This document shows positions 29,537-53,700 of a stretch of 64,000 bases of DNA, piece after piece. The number at the start of each line of letters is the position of its first letter. Position 1 is the stretch's first letter. The position numbers and the translations under genes are program-made. Source of the stretch: Torpedo marmorata (taxonomy: Eukaryota); contig OZ360228.1 of the NCBI GenBank assembly GCA_977017645.1, positions 50,902,001 through 50,966,000 of the forward strand, in the 5' to 3' direction. The notes below the pieces were generated by a model. The model searched no databases, was not told where the DNA came from, and saw nothing but the letters and a program-made list of their open reading frames with translations.

Positions 29537-31065
29537 AGTAAAACACGAAAATCTGTAGACACCGTGGTTGAAGTAAAAAACACAAATGCTGGAGAACTCA
29601 GCAGGTCAAAGTGTCTTTTATGTAGCAAAGGTAGAAATACATAACCGACGTTTCGGGCTTGAGCCCTTCATCAAAGTATGAGAAAATGTCAGCAGGCGTC
29701 CGAACAAAGGAGTGAGGGGGGAAGGGGGATGGCAAAGGCAGGAGATGATAGGTGGAGAAAGGAGGGAGGGGACAGCAGCAAAGAGGGGGAGGAGGGATGG
29801 CTGGGTAGCTGGAGAAAAACAGGAAGGACAGGTGAGGGGGGAGGGGAAGGGAACAACAAGCAGGTTAGTGGAAAGCAGAAAAGTAATTGTTAATGCCATC
29901 TGGCTGGAGAGTGCCGAGACGGAATATGAGATGTTGTTCCTCCAATTTGCGGGTAGTCTGGGTGGGATAGTACATGAGGCCATGGACAGACATGTGAGTG
30001 TGGGAGTGTGACCCAGAATTGAAATGGTTGGCTACTGGGAGGTCGCTGTTGTTGCGGACGGAGAGGAGGTGCTCAGCAAAGCGGTCTCCCAATCTACGAC
30101 CGGTCTCTCCAATGTATAGAAAGCCACAAAGGGAGCACCGGATGCAGTAAATAAGTCCTCTGGATGTACAAGTGAAGTGTAGTTTCACTTGGAAGGCCTG
30201 TTTGGGGCCCTGGACCGTGGTGAGGGGGGAGGTGTGGGCGCAGGTGTTGCACCTCCTGCGGGCACAGGGGAAGGTTCTGGGGGTGCAATGGGTGGGGAGG
30301 GATGAGTGCACGAGTGAATCGCGGAGGGAGCAGTCCCTACGAAAGGCCGAGAGGGGAGGAGAAGGAAAAATGTGTCTGGTGGTGGGATCCTGTAGTAAGT
30401 GACGGAAATTCCGGCGGATAATGTGTTGGATGCGGAGGCTGGTGGGGTGGTAGGTGAGGATGAGGGGGATTCTATGTTTGTTGTGTCTGGGGGCAGAGGG
30501 GGCCAGGGCAGATGAGCGGGAAATAGAGGAGATGCGGGTGAGGGCTGAGTTGATGGTGGTGGAGGGGAAGCCACGTTTGTGGAAAAAGGCAGACATTTCA
30601 GAAGATCTGGAGTGGAACACCTCATCTTGGGAACAGATGCGGCGGAGGCGGAGAAATTGAGAGAAGGGGATGGAGTCCTTGCAGGGGACAGGGTGTGAGG
30701 ATGTGTAGTCCAGATAGTTGTGGGAATTGGAGGGTTTGTAGTAAATGTCGGTGGAAAGCTTGTCTCCCGAGATGGAGACAGAGAGATCCAGGAAGGGGAG
30801 AGTGTTATCGGAGATGGACCAGGTGAGTTTGAGATCATGGTGAAAGTTGGATGCGAAGTGGATGAAGTTGACAAGCTCATCGCGGGTGCATGAGGTAGCC
30901 CCGATGTAGTCGTCGATATACCGGAGGAAGAGATGAGGGTCTTGCCTGTGTAGGCTTGCAGCATGGATTGCTCCACAAAGCCCACAAACAGGCAGGCGTA
31001 GCTGGGACCCATGCGGGTACCCATGGCTACTCCTTTGATTTGGAGGAAGTGGGATGAGTTGAAGA
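29537..31065 (-). mobile_element. 5'-truncated Penelope-like retroelement (RT C-terminal half, GIY-YIG endonuclease, hammerhead terminus), frameshifted
   Basis: QIKGVAMGTRMGPSYACLF; LIYCIRCSLCGFLYIGETGRRLGDRFAEH; 12-bp TSD aattcaaaggga at 29525-29536 and 31066-31077. Confidence 0.95.
29640..29680 (-). ncRNA. Minimal hammerhead ribozyme motif in PLE terminus
   Basis: Reverse complement reads catactttgatgaagggctcaagcccgaaacgtcggttatg, identical to 16685-16725. Confidence 0.72.
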
Positions 31066-31434: not shown

Positions 31435-32680
31435 TCAGAATCAGAATCAGAATTTATTGTCATGAACAAGTCATGAAATTCGGTGTTTTACAGCAGCATC
31501 ATAGTGCAATTAACATTCATATTAACCATCTAACGACATTACTATAAAAAATTATAAACAATAGTGCACGAAAAGTAAGGCAGTGTCTTTGGTTCATTGA
31601 TTATTCAGGAATCTGATGGCAGCAGGGAAGAAGCTGTCCTTGTGCCGTTGAGTGCTCGTCTTTCGGCTCCTGTACCTTTTTCCCGATGGAAGCAGAGTGA
31701 AGAGGGCATGGCCTGGGTGGTGGGGGTCTTTGAGGATAGAGGCTGCTTTTTTAAGACACCGCCTCATGTAGATGTCCTCGATGGAGTGAAGTTTGGTGCC
31801 TGTGATGTCACAGGCCGAGTTAACAACTCTCTGGAGTTTACTCTTGTCCTGGGAGTTGGCGCCTCCATACCAGGCAGTGATGCAACCAGCCAGAATGCTC
31901 TCCACGGTACACCTGTAGAAGTTTACGAGAGTCTTTGGTGGCATACCAAATCTCCGCAGACACCTCACAAAGTATAGCCACTGACGAGAACCAGGACAGA
32001 TCCTCGGAGATGTTGACACCCAGGAATTTGAAGTTCTTGACCCTCTCCACGACTGAGCCCTCGATGAGGACTGGGTCGTGTTCCCCTGACTTCCTCCTGA
32101 AGTCCACAATCATCTCCTTGGTTTTGCTGACGTTGAGCTCAAGGTTGTTGCCATTACACCATTCAACGAGCTGATCTATCTCCCTCCTGTACGCTTCCTC
32201 ATTGCCGTTTATGATTCTGCCGACAACTGTGGTGTCATCGGCAAACTTGTAGATGGCATTGGAATTGTGCCTGGCCACACAATCATGGGTGTATAACGAG
32301 TAGAGCAGTGGACTAAGCACGCATCTTTGGGGTGCGCCTATGTTGATAATCAGTGAGGAGGAGACGTTGTTTCCAATTCGTACTGACTGTGGTCTTCCGA
32401 TGAGAAAGTCAAGGATCCAGTTGCAGAGTGGGGTACAGAGGCCTAGAGTTTGTAGCTTCTTGACCAGCACTGAGCGAATAATGGTATTGAAGGCCGAGCT
32501 GTAATCGATGAAGAGCAGCCGTATGTATGAATTGCTGTTTTTGAGGTGATCCAGAGCTGAGTGGAGAGCCAGCGATATTGCATCTGCTGTGGAGCGATTG
32601 TGGCGATAGGCGAATTGCAGTGGGTCCAGATCTTTGCTTAGGTATGTGTTAATTCTGGCCATGACCAGCCTCTCAAAGCA
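31435..32680 (-). mobile_element. 5'-truncated Rex1/Babar-type LINE with RT domain; ~30-nt internal deletion near 31990
   Basis: [57 protein letters not shown]; same C-terminus and (ttctga)n tail as the 25791 and 53959 copies. Confidence 0.95.
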
Positions 32681-33376: not shown

Positions 33377-34657
33377 CTGTATTTGATGGCATAAAAGACC
33401 CACGGACATTTCAGCAGGGAATATTAAGAATTTTGTTAGTGTATTTACGGGTAAGCATTTAATATTATTGAAATATGTAGCTACAGTATATCTGAAAAAA
33501 ACTTGGACAAAACATGCAACTAGGACAACAGGAAAAATCTTTTTAATCATAATACCGCTGTAATTTACAAGAGAAAACAAAGGTAGCTATAGTAGAAAGC
33601 ACTTTATAAAAATAAACTGCCGCTGTCGGTCCCCACGCTGGTCCCGCTGCCCTGCTCTCTCCCGGCGGCCCGCTGTCGATCCCTGCGCTGGTCCCACTGC
33701 CCCGCTCTCTCCCGGTGGGGGGGGGAGCAGGGCGGTGGGAGCAGGGCGGTGGGATCAGTGTGGGGACTGGTGGCGGGCTGTTGGGAGGGAGCGGGGCGGT
33801 GGGATCGGTGTGGGGGCTGGTGGCGGGCTGTCGGGGGGGAGCGGGGCGGTGGGATCGGTGTGGGGGCTGGTGGCTGGCTGTCGGGGGGAGCGGGGCGGTG
33901 GGATCGGTGTGGTGGCAGGCTGTCAGGGGGAGCGGGACGGTGGGATCAGTGTGGGGACTGGTGGCGGGCTGTCGGGAGGGAGCGGTGTGGTGGGATCGAT
34001 GTGGGGGCTGGTGGCGGGCCGTGAGGGGGGAGCAGGGCAGTGGGATCGGTGTGGTGGCTGGTGGCGGGCTGTCGGGAGGGAGCGGGGTGGTGGGATCGGT
34101 GTGGGGGCTGGTGCAGGGCCGTCGGGGGAGAGCAGGGCAGTGGGATCGGTCTGGTGGCGGGCTGTCGGGAGGGAGCTGGGTGGTGGGATCGGTGTGGGGG
34201 CTGGTGGCGGGCTGTCGGGGGGGAGCAGGGCAGTGGGATCGGTGTGGTGGCGGGCTGTCGGGGGGGAGTGGGGCGGTGGGATCAGTGTGGGGACTGGTGG
34301 CGGGCTGTCGGGGGGGAGCGGGGCGGTGGGATCAGCGTGGGGACCGACAGCGGGCCACCGGGAGAGAGCAGGGCAGCGGGCCCAGTGCGGGGACTGACAG
34401 CGGGCCACCGGGAGAGTCTCCCGACAGCCCGCCACCTGCCCCCACACTGATCCCACCGCCCCGCTGCCCCCCGACAGCCCGCCACGAGCCCCCAATGATA
34501 GATGGCGGTGATGCTAGTGAGCCACGCAGTGACGATGATCACTGTCGCCATTACTCACCATTATCACCCTAATTTCAACTTCGCATATAAGACCCGGGGG
34601 ATATTTTTGAGCCATTTTTTGAGAAAAAAAGTGGGTCTTATATGCCATCAAATATGG
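33377..34657. mobile_element. Tc1/mariner (Tc2/pogo-like) non-autonomous element with an internal G-rich ~49-bp minisatellite
   Basis: TA|ctgtatttgatggcataaaagacccac ... gtgggtcttatatgccatcaaatatgg|TA gives TIRs plus TA TSD. Confidence 0.88.
33720..34335 (+). repeat. G-rich ~49-bp minisatellite (gggatcagtgtggggactggtggcgggctgtcggggggagcggggcggt)n
   Basis: About a dozen imperfect tandem units are visible. Confidence 0.92.
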
Positions 34658-34804: not shown

Positions 34805-35808
34805 TGACCAAGTTTACTTTCTTTTGCCTGCAGTATTAGTATTGGACTGCATTGAAATGCCCTCATATAGAATATGAAGGGTGTGTCTAATCTATTAATT
34901 GAACAAATAGGCCATCACGGCCTTGCTGATTTGATGTTAATTGACCAGACCGCAAACTTGTTAAAATTTGGACATCACAGAGGGACTGAAGCAATTCACT
35001 TAGTCATCCTGCTTTTCTCAACCGGCTGTCAAACCTCAAGATACAACTTTAACCCGCAAACTTCCTGCCACCTCTTTACCTAACGACACAAAAGAAGACA
35101 AGGACTAAAATAAGAAATGTGCTGAATCAACAAACACAACTTGAGATTATACAGAGTATAACTGTTAACCGTGGGGGAATTGTGCATGTTGAAACGTGTT
35201 TCAGATGGTAGCTCAGAAGAACAAAGAATTTTGGAAGAACTGTGACAGCAGTTTGGGTCCCACATATAATATTTTGAAAGGGACAGACATCAACGTATAC
35301 AGTACTTTACCTCGGTGTTAATTATTTGGGTTCTGTCACAGAGTTGTACAATATAGAAAAGGGCACTTTGGTCCTCCATATTCATGCTGATCCTTTTGCT
35401 CATCTAAACTATATTAATCCCATTTACCAGCAGTCGGGCTGAATCCTTTCATGCCTTGCTCTTCCTATGCCATATTCTCTGTATATGATGAATTAATCAA
35501 TCAAAAATACAGAGACTAGATTATGCTTGTTTTTGAGAAATAATTGTTCATTTTAGTAAAGAATAATATAGGCGCTGAATTCATTAACAACATTCCAATC
35601 TCTAGAAAAGGGAAGAAATTATGAAATGAAATGATGAACAATATTGACTTTTAAACTTTGCTAAACGGGTCCCTATTTAAATTGAATTTGTTTAAGATAT
35701 GACTATCAGTTATTTAAAAATTGTTCCTGAGTGTAAGTGACGGATTAGAGGATGTGAATTTTTTGCTGAGAGTGAACCAGCTATTTCAAAAATAGTGGTT
35801 ACTGCATA

Positions 35809-36755
35809 CCCTGCTGTCTCCCAGCGGCCCGCTGTCCCGCTCTCTCCTGGCGGCCCGCTGTTGGTCCCCACGCTGGTCCCGCTGCACTGCTCTCTCCCGG
35901 CGGACCGTTGTCCCGCTCTCTCCCGGAAGCCCACAGTCGGTCCCCGCGCTGGTCCCACTGTCCCGCTCTCTCCCGAGGGGGAGCGGGATGGTGGGATCAG
36001 TGTGGGGAATGGTGGCAGGCTGTCGGGGGGAGTGAGGCGGTGGGATCAGTGTGGGGACTGGTGGCGGGCTGTCGGGGAGAGCGGGGCGGTGGGAGCAGTG
36101 TGGGGACTGGTGGCGGGCTGTCGGGGGGGAGCGGGGCGGTGGGATCAGTGTGGGGACTGGTGGCGGGCTGTCGGGGAGAGCGGGGCGGTGGGAGCAGTGT
36201 GGGGACTGGTGGCGGGCTGTCGGGGGGGGAGCGGGGCGGTGGGATCAGTGTGGGGACTGGTGGCGGGCTCTCGGGGGGAGTGGGGCGGTGGGATCAGTGT
36301 GGGAACGTGGCGGGCTGTCGGGGGGAGCGGGACGGTGGGATCAGTGTGGGGACTGGTGGCGGACTGTCGGGGGAAGCGGGGCGGTGGGATCAGTGTGGGG
36401 GCTGGTGGGGCTGTCGGGGGGGAGCGGGGCGGTGGGATCAGTGTGGGGACTGGTGGCGGGCTGTCGGGGGGGAGTGGGGCGGCAGGACCAGTGCGGGGAT
36501 CGACAGCGGGCCGCCGGGAGAGTCTCCTGACAGCCCGCCCCCACACTGATCCCACCGCCCCGCTCCCCCCCCAACACCCGCCATCAGCCCTCAACGATAG
36601 ATGGCGGTGATGCTAGTGAGCCACGCAGTGACGATGATCACTGTCGGCGTTACTCACCATTATCACTCTAATTTCAACTTTGCATATAAGACCCGGGAGA
36701 TATTTTTGAGCCATTTTTTGGGAAAAAAGTTGGTCTTATATGCCATCAAATGCGG
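35809..36755. mobile_element. Second copy of the Tc2-like minisatellite-bearing element, left end missing
   Basis: 36595-36755 is nearly identical to 34495-34657, including the right TIR and TA; same 49-bp array at ~35985-36480; no left TIR. Confidence 0.88.
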
Positions 36756-39700: not shown

Positions 39701-40629
39701 TGCAGTTGTCAGAGCTTGTTGATGTTGCAATGAACAATGCAGTTTTCCACCAGATTTCATGGTTCTGCCTTAGGAAAGAAAGTAAAATAGAACAGAAGAA
39801 CAAAGTCCTAGTACATAAATCAGCAGCTGCTCTTTGCCAGATCAAAAGAATGACATTCTTGCTCCTGCTCTGCTTGTCCACTTCAGGTGGTTGATAGACA
39901 GTTAACAGCTGGCCCACTGCTGCTGATAACTGGACTATATTATCTTTTGGAAGATTAATAAAAAAATTATTATGACTTTAATCGAATAACAAAAGGGAAA
40001 TTGGAAGCATTAAGTTATGTGATCCTTTTTAACTGCACAGCCAAGTTTAGGAAGAGCTCATTTTCTCCTCTCAAAACTTGTTCTGCTGAAATGTGATTCT
40101 TGTCTTATTGAGCCATTGTGTAACCATTGTCACATTGAGTTTACTTCTGGTATGAACAAAGATGTTCAATTGCTAAGGTTCAAATTATTTCATGGTTATT
40201 GTCAACTTACTCCCATGCTTTCACAATCAAGGCATTATTTAATTTGTTGTATTCCCTGCAACCGTAATTACTCTGTCTCGCCATTCCTAGACTCTGGCAA
40301 GATTTTTAAAATATATACCTGCCTACGCAAAAGGTTACATGTAAATGCTAATAAGCTATAGATGCAAAATCTACTCTGCAACCATTTTTATTAAATATAT
40401 TCCATTTCAACTCTGGGGTAAGGTTTGCTAGATCGAATGGCATGTTTCATTAAGTGATGTATTTGAAGATTTGAAAAAATTGTTTATTTTGAAAACAAAT
40501 AATTAACATCAAAACCCTTGATAACAGTGTAATTAACTTTACTGTAATACTGTTGCATATGATTTTTTCATTAGTTCAAGTAGTTTATAAAGGATAAAAT
40601 GTTTATTTAAACAAACCTACGGTAGTTAT

Positions 40630-41530
40630 TGTTGTGTTTGGAAAGTATCAGGTTCGGTGGGTTCACAGAGAAACAAGTCTAGACACAAATGTTACAATCA
40701 AAGGTAACTTTATTGAACACACGGGAGACAAACAGGGAAAGATGTCAAACGATACTTAATTACTCTACTACTAAACAACTACCAATAGCCTGAATACGAC
40801 TGGGATTGTCTGATCTCAGAAGCTAAGCAGGCACAGGACTGGTCAGTACTTGGAGGGGAGACCACCAAGGAACACCAAGTGCTGTACGTTTATGTGAGGG
40901 GCGCTTGACAAAGTAGCGACCCTTTGTCTGCCTTACGGTAGACAAAAATTAAAGAATTTCATGTATGTTACATTCTAAATGTAGTATTACGTGACAATAA
41001 CAGAACCTTTACTGTATAGACATTCACATCGGACCCAAGTTGGACTCCGATACCACTGGCCCCCTATCTTCTACACGCTTCCGCACATGTACACACTTCA
41101 CAGACAGTGACTTTCAAACACACTCCTGATTCCCTGTACCAATGGGAATCTGTAAGCACTGATCTATCGCAGTACTACGGCTCAACTTAAGTGTAGTGCA
41201 CACCTTACCCATGACTCCTCCAGCAATGTCCACAGTAGTGACCTGGTGTGGAGCGATGTCCAGGACTTGGATCAAGAGGCATAGAGGAAGAAATGTGGCA
41301 TGCATCGATCTTTATATTGTTCTGAGCTGGGTGTCTATCCAATGATGACACTGAGTCATTTAAATGAGCCAACGGCAAGGTGTGCACTAATGGGTGGGCA
41401 GAGTCCAACCTTGATTGGCAGGTGATGCTATCTCCGAATAAGTTTCAGACAGGGAGGTCACGTGACCCTCCGTAATCCACAATGTTCCAGACAGGGAGGC
41501 CATGTGTTCCTCCACAATCCACATATAACA
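40630..41530 (-). repeat. 3' LTR (contains the SINE insertion and a ~42-bp U3 duplication)
   Basis: Direct repeat of 46317-46922; minus-strand AATAAA near 40710 and TATAAA near 41312. Confidence 0.92.
40782..41014 (+). mobile_element. 5S rRNA-derived SINE (SINE3-type) inserted in the 3' LTR
   Basis: tagcctgaatacg...tctgatctcagaagctaagcagg...ggtcagtacttggaggggagacc...gtgctgta matches 5S rRNA including boxes A and C. A ~120-bp non-5S tail ends gtgacaataacagaacctt. The segment is absent from the other LTR. Confidence 0.88.
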
Positions 41531-41540
41531 TTCCACCCCT
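41531..41540 (-). other. Polypurine tract of the LTR element
   Basis: Minus-strand AGGGGTGGAA immediately precedes the 3' LTR. Confidence 0.75.
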
Positions 41541-42769
41541 CAGAAGTCACATCACTCGCCAATCACTACAAACACAATTCTGGTTTCTAGACAGTAAAAT
41601 CTAAGTAACATGTTATAACTGTAAAAATGTGTTTAAAATGATGCAATTCAAGTGGATCGATATATACACAAGTGCCTTCCGTATGATGGACAAGGCATAT
41701 TATCAAACTCAATGACAACGCCTCACCAGTTTCCCCCCACCCCCACCCCCACAACCAAATAGGGTCGTTGTGCTCCCAATGGAGCAGGGTACTGTGGGAA
41801 CTGCTCTCCAGTGTGAGAGGGGAGGGAAGAGAGAGAACATTGTCTATTCACTGACTCACATGCCTGGTTTTTCTGGCTCAGCTGGCATATGTATGCACCT
41901 TTACCACCAGCGTCTGCAAGCAGGCAGTGAAAGGTCATCCATAAGGTGCCAAAGCCCTCTTGATGCGCCTTGGCTTCACATTTGGGTGCTCCCTCGGCAC
42001 AGAGCCCAGATGCCCGTCGCTGTGCTATCCCGTGGTGAGGCAGGGGACAGGCCGGTGGGCGTGCATCCAGGCTGTACCCATATTCTCGTGGGAGCGCCCC
42101 GTTTTTCTGGGCTGTCGTCTCACACCAGTATACCATTTCTGCTCGCGTTCCCTTTAAACGGGTGCCACGTGTGCCTGTGTTGGTTCTCTGTAACGATAGC
42201 CAGGAAGAGTCAGGACTGAAAGTTGGCCAAATTAGTAGCTTTTAAATAAAAGCTCCTGAAGCACCCACCCCATGAGGAATTAGTTTCTATTATTGGGGCG
42301 GACTGGAGGGACGCTGTCATCACCGAGTGGTCACAAAATACAGTATATACAATATTTCCTGCTAGTGGAAGATCTGCAACATTGTAATTAAAAGCTGAAA
42401 CTACAATTTCCTGAGAGTGTGCTGAAAAACATTAGTGAAAAGTAAATACCACAGCTCAGGGTTCAATTAAAAATGTCCATTACAAAGGCTGTAATTGAAA
42501 GGTGCATGACAAAGGTTGTGGGCATTGTTAAACTGGAATTTCCTGTGATAGTGTGTCCACGGCAACAGCTCTTGCCGTCTTCTGAAAGTTTTCAGTACAG
42601 TTCATGACAACAGCTTCTTGCTGCTTAAATGAGCTGGTGCTGATGACGGGAATCAGTGATGGGATCGCAGCAGTCTGTTTTGATGAGTGTTTCATAGCCA
42701 CTCATATCGGGTAGTCTTCTCCTGTTGGGGGGGGGGGAGCGGGGTGTTTGGGAGAGCTCACAAGATAGA

Positions 42770-43848
42770 TTAGTCGGGGGCCACCTCAGGTGGGGGAGGA
42801 CCAGAGGGGAGGCTGGACCATGTCGGAGTGGGTGATGCACGGGAAGCTCCACCTCCACGGGGCTTCCCCCCCGCAATGCTCTCTCCAGAGAGCATGCATG
42901 TCTCTGTGACGTCGCCGAACTTCACCTCAGACCTGCAAACTTGAGCGGTGCTCCCCGCTCTGTGTGCTCTGATCCCTCCAGGAGGGTAATGGCTTCCCGG
43001 ACGTTTTTCCCGGTTGCCAGACCCATGAGGGGCAAGACCACTCCTCTAAGGTCGGGGCGTGCGATGGTGACTAAATCGCCCGCCAAGGCACCAGTCACCT
43101 TTGTGCTCCCTGGGAAGTGGTGCTCGCGGGCGCCCCGTAGATACCCACGATCAGTGCCCACTCCCTACAAACACTCGTCCCAATGCCAGCGGTGTGCCAC
43201 TGTGGCCGGCCGTGTAAGCCCCATTCTAGGAGGGCAGGGAACCTGTCCCGGACCACAGTCACCACCCATTCCCATAGGGTGGTGCCGCCATCGACCCCTT
43301 CTGGCAGCGCCCACACGGCGTTGCCAATCGTCTGTTGTTCAGACAGACTGCCCAGGGCACCTGCTACCCGATGAGAGAGGCGGACATTGGGGGCCCCCTC
43401 ATCCCGCAACAGTAGCAGTGACATGCCTAGGTGTTCGCCTGGCCACTGGTGGTATCGGTCCCCTAACCCGGTTAGCTCCTTGGCGGAGTAGTCCCGGGTC
43501 TCCATTATCTCACAGTGCTCACTCGAGGTCCCCCCATATTAGGTTACCTCCCCATTTTGGAGGGTCAGAGGGGTGCCCTCGTGGCAGGCCTGGGACCACT
43601 TGGTCACTGGTCGAACTTGCAAAGGCTCAGGCACACAGGGCGGAGACGTGTGTCATAGGACTCAGTTTCCTCATGGTCATCACCATCCATCCAAACATAC
43701 CCATTTCCCAACCACATGTTGATCTCCTTCCCCCGCTGGACAATGGCTCAAACTTTTCCTGGGTCAAGCTGCCAGCCAGACCAGCGAGCTGCTTGCAGCT
43801 GCTGCGTTTCAATCAGCTTGGAAGCTGCCTCCATGACTTTCATTTCTG
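42770..43848 (-). pseudogene. Disrupted ERV-L/Fv1-like gag, central and C-terminal part
   Basis: Translations KV*AIVQRGKEINMWLGNGYVWMD and RDYSAKELTGLGDRYHQWPGEH...LRDEGAPNVRL...TLWEWVVTVVRDRFP parallel the ERV-L Gag motifs KVRALIGKEWD..W.GDVWED and YTPKEL..F...Y.QK.GE..WEWILRVWDNG; stops and frameshifts present. Confidence 0.75.
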
Positions 43849-45853
43849 GTAAAAAACACAAATGCTGGAGAAACTCAGCAGGTCAAACAGTGTCTTTTAT
43901 GTAGCAAAGGTAGAAATACATAACCGACGTTTCGAGCTTGAGCCCTTCATCAAAGTATGAGAAAATGCCAGCAGGCGTCCAAACAAAAGAGTGAGGGGGG
44001 GAAGGGGGGGGGTGGCAAAGGCAGGAGATGATAGGTGGAAAAAGGAGGGAGGGGACAGCAGCAAAGAGGGGGAGGAGGGATGGCTGGGTGGGTGGAAAAA
44101 AACAGGAAGGACAGGGGGGAGGGGAAGGAAAAGACAAGCAGGTTTAGTGGAAAGCAGAAAAGTCAATGTTAATGCCATCTGGCTGGAGAGTGCCCAGACG
44201 GAAAATGAGATGTTGTTTCTCCAATTTGCGGGTAGTCTGGGTGGGATAGTACATAAGGCCATGGACAGACATGTGAGTGTGGGAGTGTGATTCGGGATTG
44301 AAATGGCTGGCAACTGGGAGGTCGCTGTTGTTGCGGACGGAGAGGAGGTGCTCAGCAAAGCGATCTCCCAATCTACGACCGGTCTCTCCGATGTAGAGAA
44401 AGCCACAAACGGAGCACCGGATGCAGTAAATAAGTTCTCTGGATATTCAAGTGAAGTGTAGTTTCACTTGAAAGTCCTGTTTGCGGCCCCGTACTGTGGT
44501 GTGGGGGGAGGTGTGGGCGCAGGTGTTGCACCTCCTGCAGGCACAGGGGAAGGTGCTGGGGGTGCGATGGGTGGGGAGTGATGAGTGCACGAGGGAATCG
44601 CGGAGAGAGCGGTCCCTGCGGAAGGCCGAGAGTGGAGGAGAAGGAAAAATGTGTCTGGTGGTGGGATCCTGTAGTAAGTGCCGGAAATTCCGGCGGATAA
44701 TGTGTTGAATGCGGAGGCTGGTGGGGTGGTAGGTGAGGATGAGGGGGATTCTATGTTTGTTGCGTCTGTGGGCAGAGGGGCCCAGGGCAGATGAGTGGGA
44801 AATGGAGGAGATGCGGGTGAGGGCTGAGTTGATGGTGGCGGAGGGAAAGCCAAATTTGTAGAAGAAGGAAGACATTTCAGAAGATCTGGACTGGAAGACC
44901 TCATCTTGGGAACAGATGCGGCGGAGACAGAGAAATTGAGAGAAGGGGATGGAATCCTTGCAGGAGACAGGGTGTGAGGAAGTGTAGTCCAGATAGTTGT
45001 GGGAGTTGGAGGGTTTGTAGTAAATGTTGGTGGAAAGCTTGTCTCCTGAGATGGAGACAGAGAGATCCAGGAAGGGGAGAGTGTTATCGGAGATGGACCA
45101 GGTGAGTTTGAGATCAGGGTGGAAGTTGGATGCAAAGTGGATGAAGTTGACAAGCTCATCGCGGGTGCATGAGGCAGCCCCAATGTAGTCGTCGATAAAA
45201 TGGAGGAAGAGATGAGGGGTCTTGCCTGTGTAGGCTTGCAGCATGGATTGCTCCACAAAGCCCACAAACAGGCAGGCGTAGCTGGGACCCATGTGAGTAC
45301 CCATGGCTACTCCTTTGATTTGGAGGAAGTGGGATGAGTTAAAGGAGAAGTTATTGAGAGTGAGCACAAGTTCTGCCAGGCGGAGGAGGGTGGTGGTAGA
45401 GGGTGACTGGTCGGGTCTTTGGTCCAGAAAGAAGCGAAGTGTTTTCAGACCTTCTGTGTGGGGGATAGAGATATAAAGGGATTGGACATCTATGGTGAAG
45501 ATGATGCGGTCCGGTTCAGGGAATCTGGAGTCATTGAGGAGATGGAGTGCATCTGAGGTGTCGCGGATGTAGGTGGGGAGGGATTGGACCAGGGGAGAAA
45601 AGATGGAGTCATGGTAAGATGAAACTAGTTCGGTGGAGCAGGCAGAAACAATGGGTCTGCCTGGATGGTTGGGTTTGTGTATCTTGGGTAGAAGGTAGAA
45701 ACAGGCAGTGCGGGGGTGGGAGAGAATGAGGTTGCTGGCCGTCGAGGGGAGGTGACCAAATGTGATGAGGTCGGAGATGGTGTTGGAAACAGTGGCTTGA
45801 TGTGCAGTGGTGGGATCCTGTGGGAGGGGTCGGTAGGAGGAGGTGTCTGAGAG
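43849..45853 (-). mobile_element. 5'-truncated Penelope-like element inserted into the gag gene
   Basis: Close sequence match to the 29537 and 50765 copies; RT motifs and GIY-YIG region; hammerhead motif at 43919-43959; no clear TSD. Confidence 0.95.
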
Positions 45854-46258
45854 TTGGGTTGGTCGCTCGCACTTGGTCTGTTGGCCTAATTCTCCTGCAA
45901 TTTCATGTTGGTGTCTCAGGAGAGACACCATAAGCCAAAGGGCCCCTCCATGACTCCCCTCGTTCTCTGGAAATCCCGATTTCTCCAGGAGGGACGCCAC
46001 GTGGTGCCCTATCTTTTCACCGCGGGTGTCCAGCCTGTCGATCCAGCCGGCCGGCATGGCGTGGCTTGCTAGCCACGCCGCCAAATGGCTGAACCACTGA
46101 CGGTCATTGGTCCACCCGGGGATTTTATATTCCGACCCCGGGGTTCCTTTACTAGCTGTGGTTTGCCTCCTGCTGCCACCATTGGTGAGCAGGTACACCA
46201 TAACGAATGCACCCGACAGGACACCCACGCACACACTCATTAGCACAATCTCCCACAT
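44447..46258 (-). CDS. Chimeric ORF, 603 aa: ~135 aa Gag N-terminus with a hydrophobic segment fused in frame to a PLE reverse transcriptase, ending before GIY-YIG; expression unknown
   Basis: accATG at 46258 downstream of the PBS; MWEIVLMSVCVGVLSGAFVMVYLL...KCERPTQ|LSDTSSY...TIDVQSLY...GVAMG...FIDD...LPFLD...KLHFT*. Confidence 0.5.
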   Translation of the reverse strand: MWEIVLMSVCVGVLSGAFVMVYLLTNGGSRRQTTASKGTPGSEYKIPGWTNDRQWFSHLAAWLASHAMPAGWIDRLDTRGEKIGHHVASLLEKSGFPENEGSHGGALWLMVSLLRHQHEIAGELGQQTKCERPTQLSDTSSYRPLPQDPTTAHQATVSNTISDLITFGHLPSTASNLILSHPRTACFYLLPKIHKPNHPGRPIVSACSTELVSSYHDSIFSPLVQSLPTYIRDTSDALHLLNDSRFPEPDRIIFTIDVQSLYISIPHTEGLKTLRFFLDQRPDQSPSTTTLLRLAELVLTLNNFSFNSSHFLQIKGVAMGTHMGPSYACLFVGFVEQSMLQAYTGKTPHLFLHFIDDYIGAASCTRDELVNFIHFASNFHPDLKLTWSISDNTLPFLDLSVSISGDKLSTNIYYKPSNSHNYLDYTSSHPVSCKDSIPFSQFLCLRRICSQDEVFQSRSSEMSSFFYKFGFPSATINSALTRISSISHSSALGPSAHRRNKHRIPLILTYHPTSLRIQHIIRRNFRHLLQDPTTRHIFPSPPLSAFRRDRSLRDSLVHSSLPTHRTPSTFPCACRRCNTCAHTSPHTTVRGRKQDFQVKLHFT

Positions 46259-46294
46259 GGTTAGTACTCCACGTGTGTCCAGCCGAAACTCTTT

Positions 46295-46314
46295 GAACCC
46301 TGCTCGCAGCGCCA
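46295..46314 (-). other. Primer-binding site complementary to the tRNA-Ser 3' end
   Basis: Plus strand gaaccctgctcgcagcgCCA resembles the vertebrate tRNA-Ser(UGA/CGA) 3' end plus CCA; 2 nt from the 5' LTR. Confidence 0.82.
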
Positions 46315-46316
46315 AT

Positions 46317-46922
46317 TGTTGTATTTGGAAAGTATCAGGTTCGGTGGGTTCACAGAAACATGAGTCTGGACACAAGTGTTACAATCAAAGGTCACTTTAT
46401 TGAACACACAGGAGACAAACAGGGGAAGATATCAAATGATACTTAATTACTCTACTACTAAACAACTATATAGACATTCACATCAGACCCAGGTTGGACT
46501 CCGATACCAATGGCCGCCTATCTTATACATGCTCCTGCACGTGTACACACTTCATAGACAGGAACTTTCAAACACCCTCCCAATTTCCTGTACCAACAGG
46601 GGTGCGGCTCTCTGCTCAACTTAAGTGTTGTGCACACCTTACCCGCGACTCCTCCAGCGATGTCCACATTAGCGACCTGGCATGGAGCGATGTCCAGGAC
46701 TTGGACCAGGAGGCAGAGAGGAAGAAATGTGGCATGCATCGATCTTTATATTGTTCTGAGCTGGGTGTCTGGCCAATGATGACACTGAGTCATTTAAATG
46801 AGCCAACGGTAAGGTGTGCACTAATGGGTGGCCGGAGTCCAACCTTAATTGGCAGGTGATGCAACCCCCGAATACATTTCAGACAGGGAGGTCACGTGAC
46901 CCTCCACAATCCACATATAACA
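46317..46922 (-). repeat. 5' LTR (606 bp)
   Basis: TGTT...AACA ends; minus-strand TATAAA near 46747 and AATAAA near 46398; E-box palindrome GGTCACGTGACC in U3. Confidence 0.92.
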
Positions 46923-47782
46923 GTCAGCTCAATAGAACTGCAATTATGTACCAATTAAAAGGCAACTAATTTGAAGAAATACGAGTATTGATAAATTTGA
47001 AGAGATATAAATATAAACACATTTAATTAAAAGACGAATGAAATAACAGTCTTTCAAAATTATTTTCTTTACAGAAAGCAAATTGCTTAATTTATGATTA
47101 ATACTTTAGAGAGGTTGAAAATTACTTTATGAATGAAAGTGACTTACATATGAAGATGACATGAATATGCAGATATGCTGCGTTGTTAAAATTGAACTTG
47201 CCTATTCACAAACTTTCACTCAAATTTAATGTTTTTTCAACATTTAATCAATGAAAAACTATATACAGATAAACATATCAACTTATTACAGGTGCAAGGC
47301 TGAAAATTCCATGAGAGGATCACTGCATGAAAAATGCCCTGGGGTAAAAAAAAATCAGTTCTCATCTTCATCTTATCTCAATTCCCTGTGACAGGGTTGT
47401 TTAACTAATAACAATGGAAACAAAAGTGTATCATGGTGAACGACCTGCTCTGTATGGGAATCCATGTGGCTGAAGATTAAGGTCCACAGGAAGATATCAA
47501 AACAATCTTTCATAATCAATGATGTTATATTCTGGAGTGTTGCAAACTTCACAGATTCCAAAACAAAATCAAGACCAGCCATCAGCAGGTCTCGACAGGT
47601 GTAGATCTGATGGGACTATCAGAGGCAAATAGGGTGGTATTTCCAACGTCGGCAGCAGCCAACATCATTCAGCTGCTCGCATAAAGCCTCAGGGATGTTG
47701 TTAACAGGAGCTAACAGAAGGTGCATAAGCTTGCCATGACCCAGCATAAGAATTGCTCTGTGTTATTAAAAGTGATCCTTGA

Positions 47783-50760: not shown

Positions 50761-50764
50761 ATCT

Positions 50765-53700
50765 AAAAAACACAAAATGCTGGAGAAAATCAGCAGGTCA
50801 AACAGTGTCCTTTATGTAGAAAAGGTAGAAATACATAACCAACGTTTCGGGCTTGAGCCCTTCATCAAGGTATGAGAGAATGCCGGCGGGTGTCTGAACA
50901 AAAGGGTAGGGGGGGGAGGGGGAGGGGTGGCAAAGGCAGGAGATGATAGGTGGATGAGGGGAGGGAGGGGACAGCAGCAATGAGGGGGAGGAGGGATGGC
51001 TGGGTGGGTAAGGGGGAAGGGAGGGGAGAACTGGAAAGACAGGAAAGGGGAGGGGAAAGAAAAGGCAAACATGTTTGGCAGAAAGCAGAGAAATCAATGT
51101 TAATGCCATTTGGCGGGAGAGTGCCCAGACAGAAGATACGGTGTTGTTCCTCCAATCTGCAGGTGGTCAGGGCGGGATAGTGCAAAAGGCCATGGACAGA
51201 CATGTGAGTCAAGGAGTGTGACTCAGAATTGAAATGGTTGGTTACTGGGAGGTCGCTGTTGTTGCGGACGGAGAGGAGGTGCTCAGCGAAGCGGTCTCCC
51301 AATCTGCTACCAGTCTCTCCGATGTAGAGAAAGCCACAAAGGGAGCACCGGATGCAGTAAATAAGTCCTGTGGATGTACAAGTGAAGTGTTGCTTCACTT
51401 GAAAGGCCTGTTTGGGGCCCCGGACCATGGTGAGGGAGGAGGTGTGGGCGCAGGTGTTGCACCTCCTGCGGGCACAGGGGAAGGTGCCGGGGGGGGGGGG
51501 CGATAGGTGGGGATGGACGAGCGCACGGAGAGAGTGGTCCCTCTCCGTGAATGGTCCCTGCAGAAAGCGGAGAGGGGAGGAGAACGAAAAATGTGTCTGG
51601 TGGTGGGATCCTGTAGTAAATGCCAGAAATTCCGGCGGATAATGTGTTGGATGCAGAGGCTGGTGGGGTGGTAGGTGAGGATGAGGGGGATTCTATGTTT
51701 GTTGCATCTGGGGGCAGAGGGGGCCAGTGCAGATGAGTGAGAAATGGAGGAGATGCGGGTGAGGGCTGAGTTGATGGTGGTGGAGGGGAAGCCACGTTTG
51801 TGGAAGAAGGCAGATATTTCGGAAGATCTGGATGGAAGACCTCATCTTGGGAACAGATGCAGCGGAGACGGAGAAATTGAGAAAAAGGGATGGAATCCTT
51901 GCAGGGGACAGGGTGTGAGGAAGTGTAGTCCAGGTAGTTGTGGGAGTTGGAGGGTTTGTAGTATATGTTGGTGGAAAGCTTGTCTCCCGAGATGGAGGCA
52001 GAGAGATCCAGGAAGGGGAGAGTGTTATCAAAGATGGACCAGGTGAGTTTGAGATCAGGGTGGAAGTTGGACGCGAAGTGGATGAAGTTGACAAGCTCAT
52101 TGCGGGTGCATGAGGCAGCCCCAATGTAGTCGTCGATATACCAGAGGAAGAAATGTGGGGTCTTGCCTGTGTAGGCTCCACAAAGCCCACAAACAGGCAG
52201 GCATAGCTGGGACCCATGCGGGTACCCATAGCTACTCCTTTAATTTGGAGGAAGTGAGATGAGTTAAAGGAGAAGTTATTTAGAGTGAGGACAAGTTCTG
52301 CCAGGCGGAGGAGGGTGGTGGTAGAGGGTGACTGGTCGGGTCTTTGGTCCAGGAAGAAGCGAAGTGCTTTCAGACCTTCTGTGTGGGGGATGGAGGTATA
52401 AAGGAATTGGACATCCATCGTGAAGATGAGGCGGTCCGGTTCGGGGAATCTGGAGTCATTGAGGAGATGGAGGGCATGTGAGGTGTCGTGGATGTAGGTG
52501 GGGAGGGATTGGACCAGGGGAGAAAAGATAGAGTCAAGGTAAGATTAAACTACTTCGGTGGGGCAAGAGCAGGCAGAAATAAGGGGTCTACCCAGATGGT
52601 TGGGTTTGTGTATCTTGGGTAGAAGGTAGAAACGGGCAGTACAGGGGTGGGAGAGAATGAGGTTAGCGGCCGTGGAGGGGAAGTGACCAGAGGTGATGAG
52701 GTTAAAGATGGTGTTGGAGACAGTGGCTTGATGTGTAGTGGTGGGGTCGATAGAAGGAGGTGTCTGAGAGCTGTCGACTGGCCTCGGCAAGGTAGAGGTC
52801 AGTGCGCCAGACCACAACAGCACCACCCTTGTCTGCGGGTTTGATGGTGAGGTTGGGATTGTTGCGGAGAGAGTGGAGGGCAGAGCGTTCTTAGGAGATG
52901 AGAATGGAATACGAGAGGGGGGTGGTAAAGTTGAGACGGTTGATGTCTCGGCGACAGTTGGAAATAAAAAGGTCCAGAGCGGGCAGCTGGCCAGGATGAG
53001 GTGTCCAGGAGGAGGAAGAGGGCTTGAAGCGGGAGATGGGGTTTTGGATGGGGGGGTGGAGAGTCACGGTCATGGAGGTGAGCCCGGAGGCGACGGAAGA
53101 AGAGTTTGGCATCGCGGCGTGCTCGGAACTCGTTGAGGTGTTGTCGGAGGGGGGCGAAGGTGAGGCCTCTACTGAGGACCGAGCGCTCCGTCTCAGAGAG
53201 GGGAAGGTCAAAGGGGATAGTAAAAACCAAGCAGGGGTCAGAGTGGGAATCGGTGTTGTGGAGGGTGTTGGGGGAGGGGGAGGAGAAGGGTTGGGGAGAT
53301 CCGAGGGTGGAGATGGAAGGTGGGGGAGGTTGGAGGGAGGAGGAGGAGGGTTGGGGGGTTTGGTGGGGGGAGCGGGGTTGGGGAGGTCAGAGGGGGGAGG
53401 TCAGAGGGGGGAGGTCAGAGGGGGGAGGTGGGGGGTGGGGGAGGTCAGAGGAGGGGTGGGGGAGGTTGGGGGGGAGGAAGGGGAGGGTGGGGGAGGTCAG
53501 AGGGGGGAGAGGAGTGTAGGGGGGTAGCCAGAGAGAGGAGGGAGGTGAGGTCTGAGGGTTTAGGGGTTGGGGAGAAGAGGGGGGCAGAGAGGGGGAGATG
53601 GGGGTGGAGTAGGGAGAGGTGTAGGAGGATAGGGAAGGAGTAGTGAGGGGGATAAGTAAGTGGGATCCAGTAGCGAGATCAGGACTCCAGTGGCAGTCTG

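Follow-up and report, generated by a model that had tools for sequence, protein, structure and literature searches.

The question raised by this locus is how a retroviral element that carries gag without pol came to be inserted, and whether it stands alone or belongs to a family. The stretch analysed (the window: 64,000 nucleotides of Torpedo marmorata, assembly GCA_977017645.1, contig OZ360228.1, positions 50,902,001 to 50,966,000) contains on its minus strand, at 40630-46922, an endogenous retrovirus (ERV) bounded by long terminal repeats (LTRs), for which the coordinates of a preliminary description made from the sequence alone proved exact. Judged from its sequence, the window copy is one dead member of a class III LTR family that is high in copy number and has neither pol nor env; the insertion is dead and shows no trace of a function for the host. 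The family very probably spread through non-autonomous mobilisation with helper swapping, in which a parasite module comparable to the mammalian MaLR elements would have been recombined onto successive autonomous helpers.

The genome (6.2 Gb) was searched for parts of the element, giving first-look candidates that are not copy numbers (LTR 5163, gag 3' part 3921, tail 4067, helper reverse transcriptase (RT) 1062), from which the top 20-22 of the best 40 matches per internal query were fetched, together with 38 loci for a second LTR type, LTR2. Copies with the gag of the window element are termed N, and are divided into N1 and N2 according to whether their ends are of LTR1 or LTR2 type. Neither RT nor integrase (IN) lies in the fetched stretch of any N copy (0 of 55, window included), and gag joins the tail directly at one common junction in 50 of the 52 N copies that reach the end of gag, placing the loss of pol at the level of the family, as had been proposed, and not in a private deletion. 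Sequencing-run contigs (records 25 and 26) span the same gag-tail junction and are uninformative on expression. The solo, gag-only and pol-bearing copy types distinguished in the preliminary description were counted at the 38 loci anchored on LTR2, comprising 22 solo LTRs, 12 gag-only copies, 2 helper-type copies and 2 fragments.

The autonomous class III partner expected in this genome was found as two gag-pro-pol families, A1 and A2 (43 loci, with RT/IN in the stretch for 39), exemplified by a locus (L011) where an LTR pair 8 kb apart encloses gag, protease, RT, RNase H and integrase (RVP, RVT_1, RT_RNaseH_2, rve). The primer binding site (PBS) is of the Ser type in 71 of 75 copies across A1, A2, N1 and N2, with 16-18 of 18 nt matching. 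No env was found in the helpers, whose ~1.15 kb from IN to LTR is without any extended open reading frame (ORF) and without codon bias, and no dUTPase was seen after IN in three helper copies inspected by eye, with no hidden Markov model scan, the IN stop being followed by a tail without codon bias. All gag-to-pro reading phases are present among nine helper copies. The natural helper frames feature RT YIDD and an IN zinc finger HX4HX28CX2C, with a first D-D spacing of 57, not 58; YIDD together with HX4HX28CX2C is listed for ERV-L and XtERV-S, unlike foamy virus or murine leukaemia virus (MLV) (PMC8278194 Table 2). Against PDB, helper RT matches full-length MLV-type and foamy chains at 94-113 bits and Ty3 at 63-66; its nearest database RTs are those of ray, frog, teleost, lizard and bird elements (37-61%), and in a tree without labelled ERV-L/ERV-S references it groups with elements from ray, frog, teleost and lizard, those from birds lying alongside. 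Among named proteins, one from Hemitrygon is nearest to the ERV's Gag and RT alike.

A Gypsy or BEL identity, or a private deletion, is vanishingly improbable: Pfam is blank for N Gag, and Atlas feature matches, at lead level, are mostly to Retrotrans_gag (0.86-0.90), but the partner RT is retroviral, the Gag relatives are Fv1-like and the junction is common to nearly all copies; both readings were therefore rejected. A protein search with a frog RT recovered 30 more pol loci (L144-L173), in which class III is represented by three or more additional pol lineages, with RT at 64-75% to A1/A2, some on short terminal branches and with long open pol frames. None of these 30 carries N gag (best 73%), and the 22 of them that entered the gag tree all lie outside the N clade; a further locus considered as N gag with pol (L044) was rejected, its match being 109 bp inside an A1 copy. 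It is also improbable that a pol-bearing autonomous family with N gag was missed by the best-40 sampling, the gag-only form being its ordinary deletion derivative. About 130 internal-bearing loci were examined among thousands of first-look candidates, and the additional pol lineages leave room for such a family, but pol is present in 0 of 34 N copies not selected via the tail query (95% upper bound 8.4%), N gag extends over a long stretch in 0 of 73 helper-type or pol-bearing loci, and the two sets of helper-type ends would be left unexplained.

Those two sets of ends reveal a mosaic. Mean LTR p-distances of 0.102 (A1-N1) and 0.096 (A2-N2) equal the within-group values, with cross pairs at 0.19-0.20, and the tail behaves likewise (0.11 and 0.13 within matched pairs vs 0.19-0.21 across), whereas mean distances in the gag core are 0.133 for N1-N2, 0.195 for A1-A2 and 0.33-0.35 for A-N. 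LTR and gag trees conflict with 100% support in the Shimodaira-Hasegawa-like approximate likelihood ratio test (40 of 69 LTRs, 40 of 85 gag stretches). Approximately unbiased tests, from each set of which two intermediate rows were removed, reject a single clade of gag-only copies for the LTRs (p 1e-6) and, for gag, a single clade of LTR1-type copies (p 1e-96). Diagnostic majority columns, counted in 55 and 46 copies without large insertions, number 12 helper-matched to 0 lineage-matched over the 300 nt that follow the PBS (leader and gag start), 3 helper-matched to 206 lineage-matched at 400-1499 (gag core), and 98 helper-matched to 0 lineage-matched in the tail. The 5' crossover lies ~272-282 nt after the PBS in N1 and ~421-442 nt in N2, with 28 N1-private sites between, and the two distinct positions indicate two separate crossovers. 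Sequence comparison thus indicates that the element is no simple deletion derivative of a helper and that its gag comes from a separate lineage; since N gag occurs in none of the further pol loci recovered and forms its own deep branch, nested among the genome's own class III lineages, this source appears to be unsampled or extinct.

Median Kimura two-parameter (K2P) distances between paired LTRs are 0.089 for A1, 0.093 for N1, 0.073 for A2 and 0.073 for N2, differing between N1 and N2 (p 9e-5) and not between either N subfamily and its own helper (p>0.3). Absolute dating proved unusable, giving 17-21 million years at 2.2e-9 vs 166-211 million years at 2.2e-10 (the rate assumed in PMC4422223). 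The mosaic could have been produced after insertion, by gene conversion or ectopic recombination of chromosomal copies and not by template switching, an account that is consistent with the existence of intermediate LTR types and with imperfect target-site duplications (TSDs; 3 of 5 positions matching in the window copy, and at least two mismatches in 6 of 15 elements). It is nevertheless quite unlikely, given that the boundaries are common at subfamily level, that LTR, leader and tail change together, that LTR ages fit each helper, and that many N copies keep exact TSDs.

A gag lineage of its own combined with helper-type LTRs, leader and tail implies that the family was likely mobilised in trans and that its ends were likely acquired by recombination at least twice. 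Under the favoured scheme of helper swapping, parasite and helper RNA would be packaged together, as established retroviral biology would lead one to expect, helper Pol would complement the parasite in trans, and template switching by RT would set the ~1.3-kb gag module between helper-type ends. Such recombinants would be favoured because they have the promoter, packaging and integrase-end signals of the current helper in common with it. A1/N1 may represent an older wave, the gag module having likely moved to A2 ends afterwards. The shortened N Gag may have been translated and have helped to package its own RNA in cis, in particles predicted to be intracellular from the absence of env and the hydrophobic Gag N-terminus. 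By analogy with MERV-L, that N-terminus is a predicted membrane anchor for intracellular budding; MERV-L particles are described in the endoplasmic reticulum (PMC11359688).

Whether this Gag was functional is a question apart from that of the ends. Between N and A gag, the ratio of non-synonymous to synonymous substitution rates (dN/dS) is 0.18-0.22 at a dS of ~0.9, with A1-A2 controls of 0.13 for gag and 0.09 for RT. N gag has undergone three fixed deletions near its C-terminus, of 15, 15 and 66 nt, all in frame (chance ~0.005). N copies have a common stop ~52 codons beyond the capsid anchor (at 51-52 in 10 of 20), and no disabling stop or frameshift is common to most N copies. Shared variants within N have a non-synonymous to synonymous count ratio (N/S) of 1.44 vs 2.97 for singletons (p 0.037), and are thus still depleted of amino-acid changes. 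Two candidate lesions were discarded: what looked like a fixed one-base shift of frame near codon 228 stems from a slippage-prone C-run in the helpers, and a stop present in 12 of 47 N copies is confined to that minority and likely lies at a CpG site.

Several points weigh against the reading developed here. The sampling of best-40 matches is non-random; every copy examined is old and broken, so that mobilisation is not observable; about ten N copies are of intermediate LTR/tail types, so that the two-group picture is simplified; the difference between A1 and A2 LTR ages alone is non-significant (p 0.18, n 8 and 6); and labelled MuERV-L, HERV-S and MaLR references are absent from the comparisons. 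As regards the protein, N Gag has lost a conserved C-terminal motif that the helpers share with other class III Gags, the N/S of shared variants within N exceeds that of helper gag (0.44, p 0.003), and non-CpG differences between N1 and N2 comprise 2 synonymous and 5 non-synonymous changes; selection on gag inside the pol-less family being weak, the low N-A dN/dS may date from an autonomous ancestor. Intermediate LTR1/LTR2 gag-only loci (L013, L019, L021-L024, L027, L031, L116) were recorded, and may mark further helper swaps.

An alternative that retains helper swapping takes gag to be a passive relic, the family being an ETn-like non-coding parasite whose gag, from an extinct third class III lineage, serves in RNA packaging or as a spacer. 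The high N/S within the family, the deleted C-terminal motif and the absence of a pol-bearing source among the 43 + 30 helper and additional pol loci favour it; the in-frame fixed deletions, the common stop, the lack of any fixed disabling change and the depletion of amino-acid changes in shared variants do not, and its probability is put at somewhat below an even chance. On sequence evidence, the N protein was under selection at some stage, with selection weak or relaxed after pol loss, and the chances that N Gag acted in cis are about evenly balanced.

The window copy displays this architecture with later damage, its features being as follows.

46317..46922, minus strand: 5' LTR (TGT...ACA), of the LTR1 type as in helper A1, from LTR alignment and family comparison.
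46297..46314 (20 nt to 46295), minus strand: PBS for tRNA-Ser(CGA/TGA), from a tRNA gene match.
45878..46258, minus strand: gag 5' part, 127 codons from ATG, with a hydrophobic N-terminus.
43848..45877, minus strand: 5'-truncated Penelope-like element (RT and GIY-YIG) within gag, private to the window copy.
42777..43847, minus strand: gag 3' part, class III capsid region of the family-specific lineage, interrupted by stops and frameshifts.
42690..42776, minus strand: family-specific stretch at the junction without pro-pol.
41542..42686, minus strand: non-coding 3' tail of A1 type, homologous to the helper post-integrase region.
41531..41541, minus strand: polypurine tract, adjoining the 3' LTR.
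40630..41530, minus strand: 3' LTR, carrying a later 233-bp insertion at 40782-41014.
40625..40629, no strand: left TSD copy, degenerate, 5 bp, with 3 of 5 positions matching 46923-46927.

The LTRs, Ser PBS, polypurine tract and Gag motifs reported in the preliminary description are all present. The window LTR pair is identical at 546 of 600 aligned columns (91%, K2P 0.097), both LTRs being TGT...ACA, and the first ~210 nt of the gag 5' part are of helper-A1 type. The PBS starts two bases internal to the 5' LTR and pairs exactly with the 3' terminus, CCA added, of a tRNA-Ser(CGA) gene in the same genome, identified among five tRNA-like loci from a pattern search, in two of which ARAGORN found tRNA-Ser. 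The predicted TSD length of 5 bp stands for the family, among 15 elements with both ends read (exact in 6, at most one mismatch in 9, and exact at 4 or 6 bp in none); the TSD of the window copy itself, with 3 of 5 positions matching, is the weak point. The Penelope-like insert, with Pfam matches to RVT_1 and GIY-YIG, interrupts gag as described, having displaced ~95 bp of it by comparison with three sister copies; sister copies without the insert have ~2.85 kb of internal sequence, close to the ~2.8 kb estimated earlier. Neither protease, RT, IN nor env gave a Pfam match (E<=1) in four gag-side and tail frames and the gag 5' part, in agreement with the blank reported downstream of gag, and the tail, without ORF or codon-position bias, was rejected as an env remnant.

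Several side observations concern the window itself. An open frame of 603 codons (44447-46258, minus strand), in which the Penelope insert continues the frame of gag, joins the 127 Gag codons to Penelope RT behind the 5' LTR, probably by chance. Among named proteins, the Penelope RT is closest to those of Chiloscyllium, Hypanus, Mobula and Rhincodon (61-75%), and its Penelope-like family has further members in the window, 88-93% identical to the insert, at 29573-31064 and 50764-52773, for which the nearest named proteins come from rays and sharks. These relatives of the transposable elements are indirect pointers to an elasmobranch host. The 233-bp insertion in the 3' LTR is a very high-copy repeat, with contig depth far above that of the ERV and further occurrences in two fetched loci (L002, L009), and is possibly a DNA-transposon fragment. 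Arrays of a 38-bp minisatellite (35 matches) and of G-rich ~49-bp units extend from 47770 to beyond 49000 and over 33500-34600 and 35700-36600, and a LINE-type reverse transcriptase frame fragment was seen by eye at 31838-32680.

The family is established, at the level of sequence, as a class III ERV, as first suggested, on the strength of the retroviral helper RT, the YIDD and IN motifs and Fv1-like Gag relatives. N Gag has 12 database relatives (E<=1e-3), the named ones being in rays, snake and birds and one, from Narcine, bearing the name Friend virus susceptibility 1-like; identity is ~50% to the local helpers and 25-31% to most other database relatives. No CCHC zinc finger was found in the natural Gag frames read, and Pfam assigned neither N Gag nor its relatives to a family, giving just unrelated weak matches. 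A single-sequence structure model of N Gag reached a predicted local distance difference test score of 36, and the model of a ray Gag homologue gave weak capsid matches only (best E 0.29 in PDB, 0.07 in BFVD). A hydrophobic Gag N-terminus (Kyte-Doolittle >=1.6), regarded as atypical in the preliminary description, was found among open-start copies in 7 of 10 A1, 8 of 9 A2, 7 of 9 N1 and 11 of 13 N2; of the relatives tested, the ray and the unnamed ones are without it and the pigeon ones have it, and its occurrence in helpers and birds means that it is not peculiar to the window element. In the electric ray Narcine bancroftii, an ORF resembling class III Gag, up to 540 aa long (P0138/P0130) and annotated as Fv1-like, could represent a young ERV or else a gag that has been co-opted.

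Subgroup markers are mixed between ERV-L and ERV-S, with a Ser primer, no env found and no dUTPase seen. The ERV-L primer is tRNA-Leu. Strict ERV-L markers are thus lacking, the primer being Ser and dUTPase not having been seen by eye after integrase in the three helpers; of the HERV-S/XtERV-S markers the tRNA-Ser primer is present and env is not. TGT...ACA termini and a 5-bp TSD agree with class III (features after the available text of PMC8278194; class markers were also checked against that of PMC1224870). The MaLR hallmarks of a gag-related internal region, no pol, no env and high copy number are all seen. Descent from eutherian ERV-L/MaLR is not indicated, as the host is an elasmobranch and Gag nests with local class III lineages, to which it is ~50% identical against 25-31% for most other relatives, a placement made without direct MaLR comparison.

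Comparable systems have been described elsewhere. The ERVL-MaLR elements of eutherian mammals (MLT1, MST, THE1, MT, ORR1) are pol-less, env-less class III elements partnered with env-less ERV-L (PMC11359688, PMC6466679). The window family resembles them in class, gag homology, lack of pol and env, abundance and an env-less ERV-L-type partner; it differs in its separate origin and Ser primer, as far as can be told without comparison with MaLR sequence itself, and in the survival of helper copies with near-identical LTRs, which makes the crossovers mappable. It works like MaLR but is no MaLR. XtERV-S of African frogs is a class III, ERV-L-related gag-pol element with a Ser PBS, TGT...ACA LTRs, a 5-bp TSD, a Gag of ~530 aa without zinc finger, IN HX4HX28CX2C and YIDD, all features that recur here; as described in the available text (PMC8278194), however, it has env, dUTPase after IN and a polybasic Gag N-terminus, whereas the present helpers have neither env nor room for dUTPase and have a hydrophobic Gag N-terminus. 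Its 19 internally deleted copies with LTR substitution keep only the gag 5' end (PMC8278194), and are few where the window family is abundant.

In wheat, RLG_Quinta/RLG_Cereba and RLG_Sabrina/WHAM/Wilma include a non-autonomous partner with its own diverged GAG, with PBS and LTR parts common to both partners and long co-evolution (PMC11302176, PMC9744471); those are plant Gypsy elements rather than vertebrate retroviral ones, and in the ray the LTR in full, the leader and the tail can each be of the type of either of two helpers. The mouse IAP 1-delta-1 and ETn/MusD elements provide examples of defective ERVs commoner than their env-less helpers, with a cis effect of the Gag-derived protein of the defective element reported for IAP 1-delta-1 (PMC6466679), but they are class II and derive directly from the helper, with no gag of foreign lineage.

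Cartilaginous fish were already known to have class III ERVs, from 2843 clade III RT loci in six chondrichthyan genomes (clade Huo/clade III; PMC11089739 Table 2), an SnRV-like lineage I of CmiERV (PMC4422223) and further accounts of abundant class III RT loci (PMC6001957, PMC4977317, 10.1101/2021.11.23.469661), and mammals and plants to have gag-only partners; it is from these last two that the gag-only helper-dependent strategy has so far mainly been described. The literature searched, which lay outside Repbase, Dfam and most subscription papers, contained no report of a gag-only class III family or of helper swapping in cartilaginous fish. It is tentatively proposed, at rather less than even probability, that the MaLR strategy arose independently in a further vertebrate lineage, with an orphan gag whose pol-bearing parent is gone, repeated helper-end recombination, a shortened Gag, devoid of the conserved C-terminal domain, packaging in cis, and a parasite outnumbering its helpers several-fold.

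MaLRs are among the most abundant mammalian ERV derivatives, in which helper tracking and gag retention are hard to study; the ray family offers a convergent case, with two helper lineages, two parasite subfamilies and crossovers readable in one genome. As surveys of Chondrichthyes are, in their available text, RT- or Pol-based, pol-less families are invisible to them, and with gag-only copies exceeding helper-type copies by 12 to 2 in one LTR-anchored sample, the class III load of cartilaginous fish has probably been underestimated.

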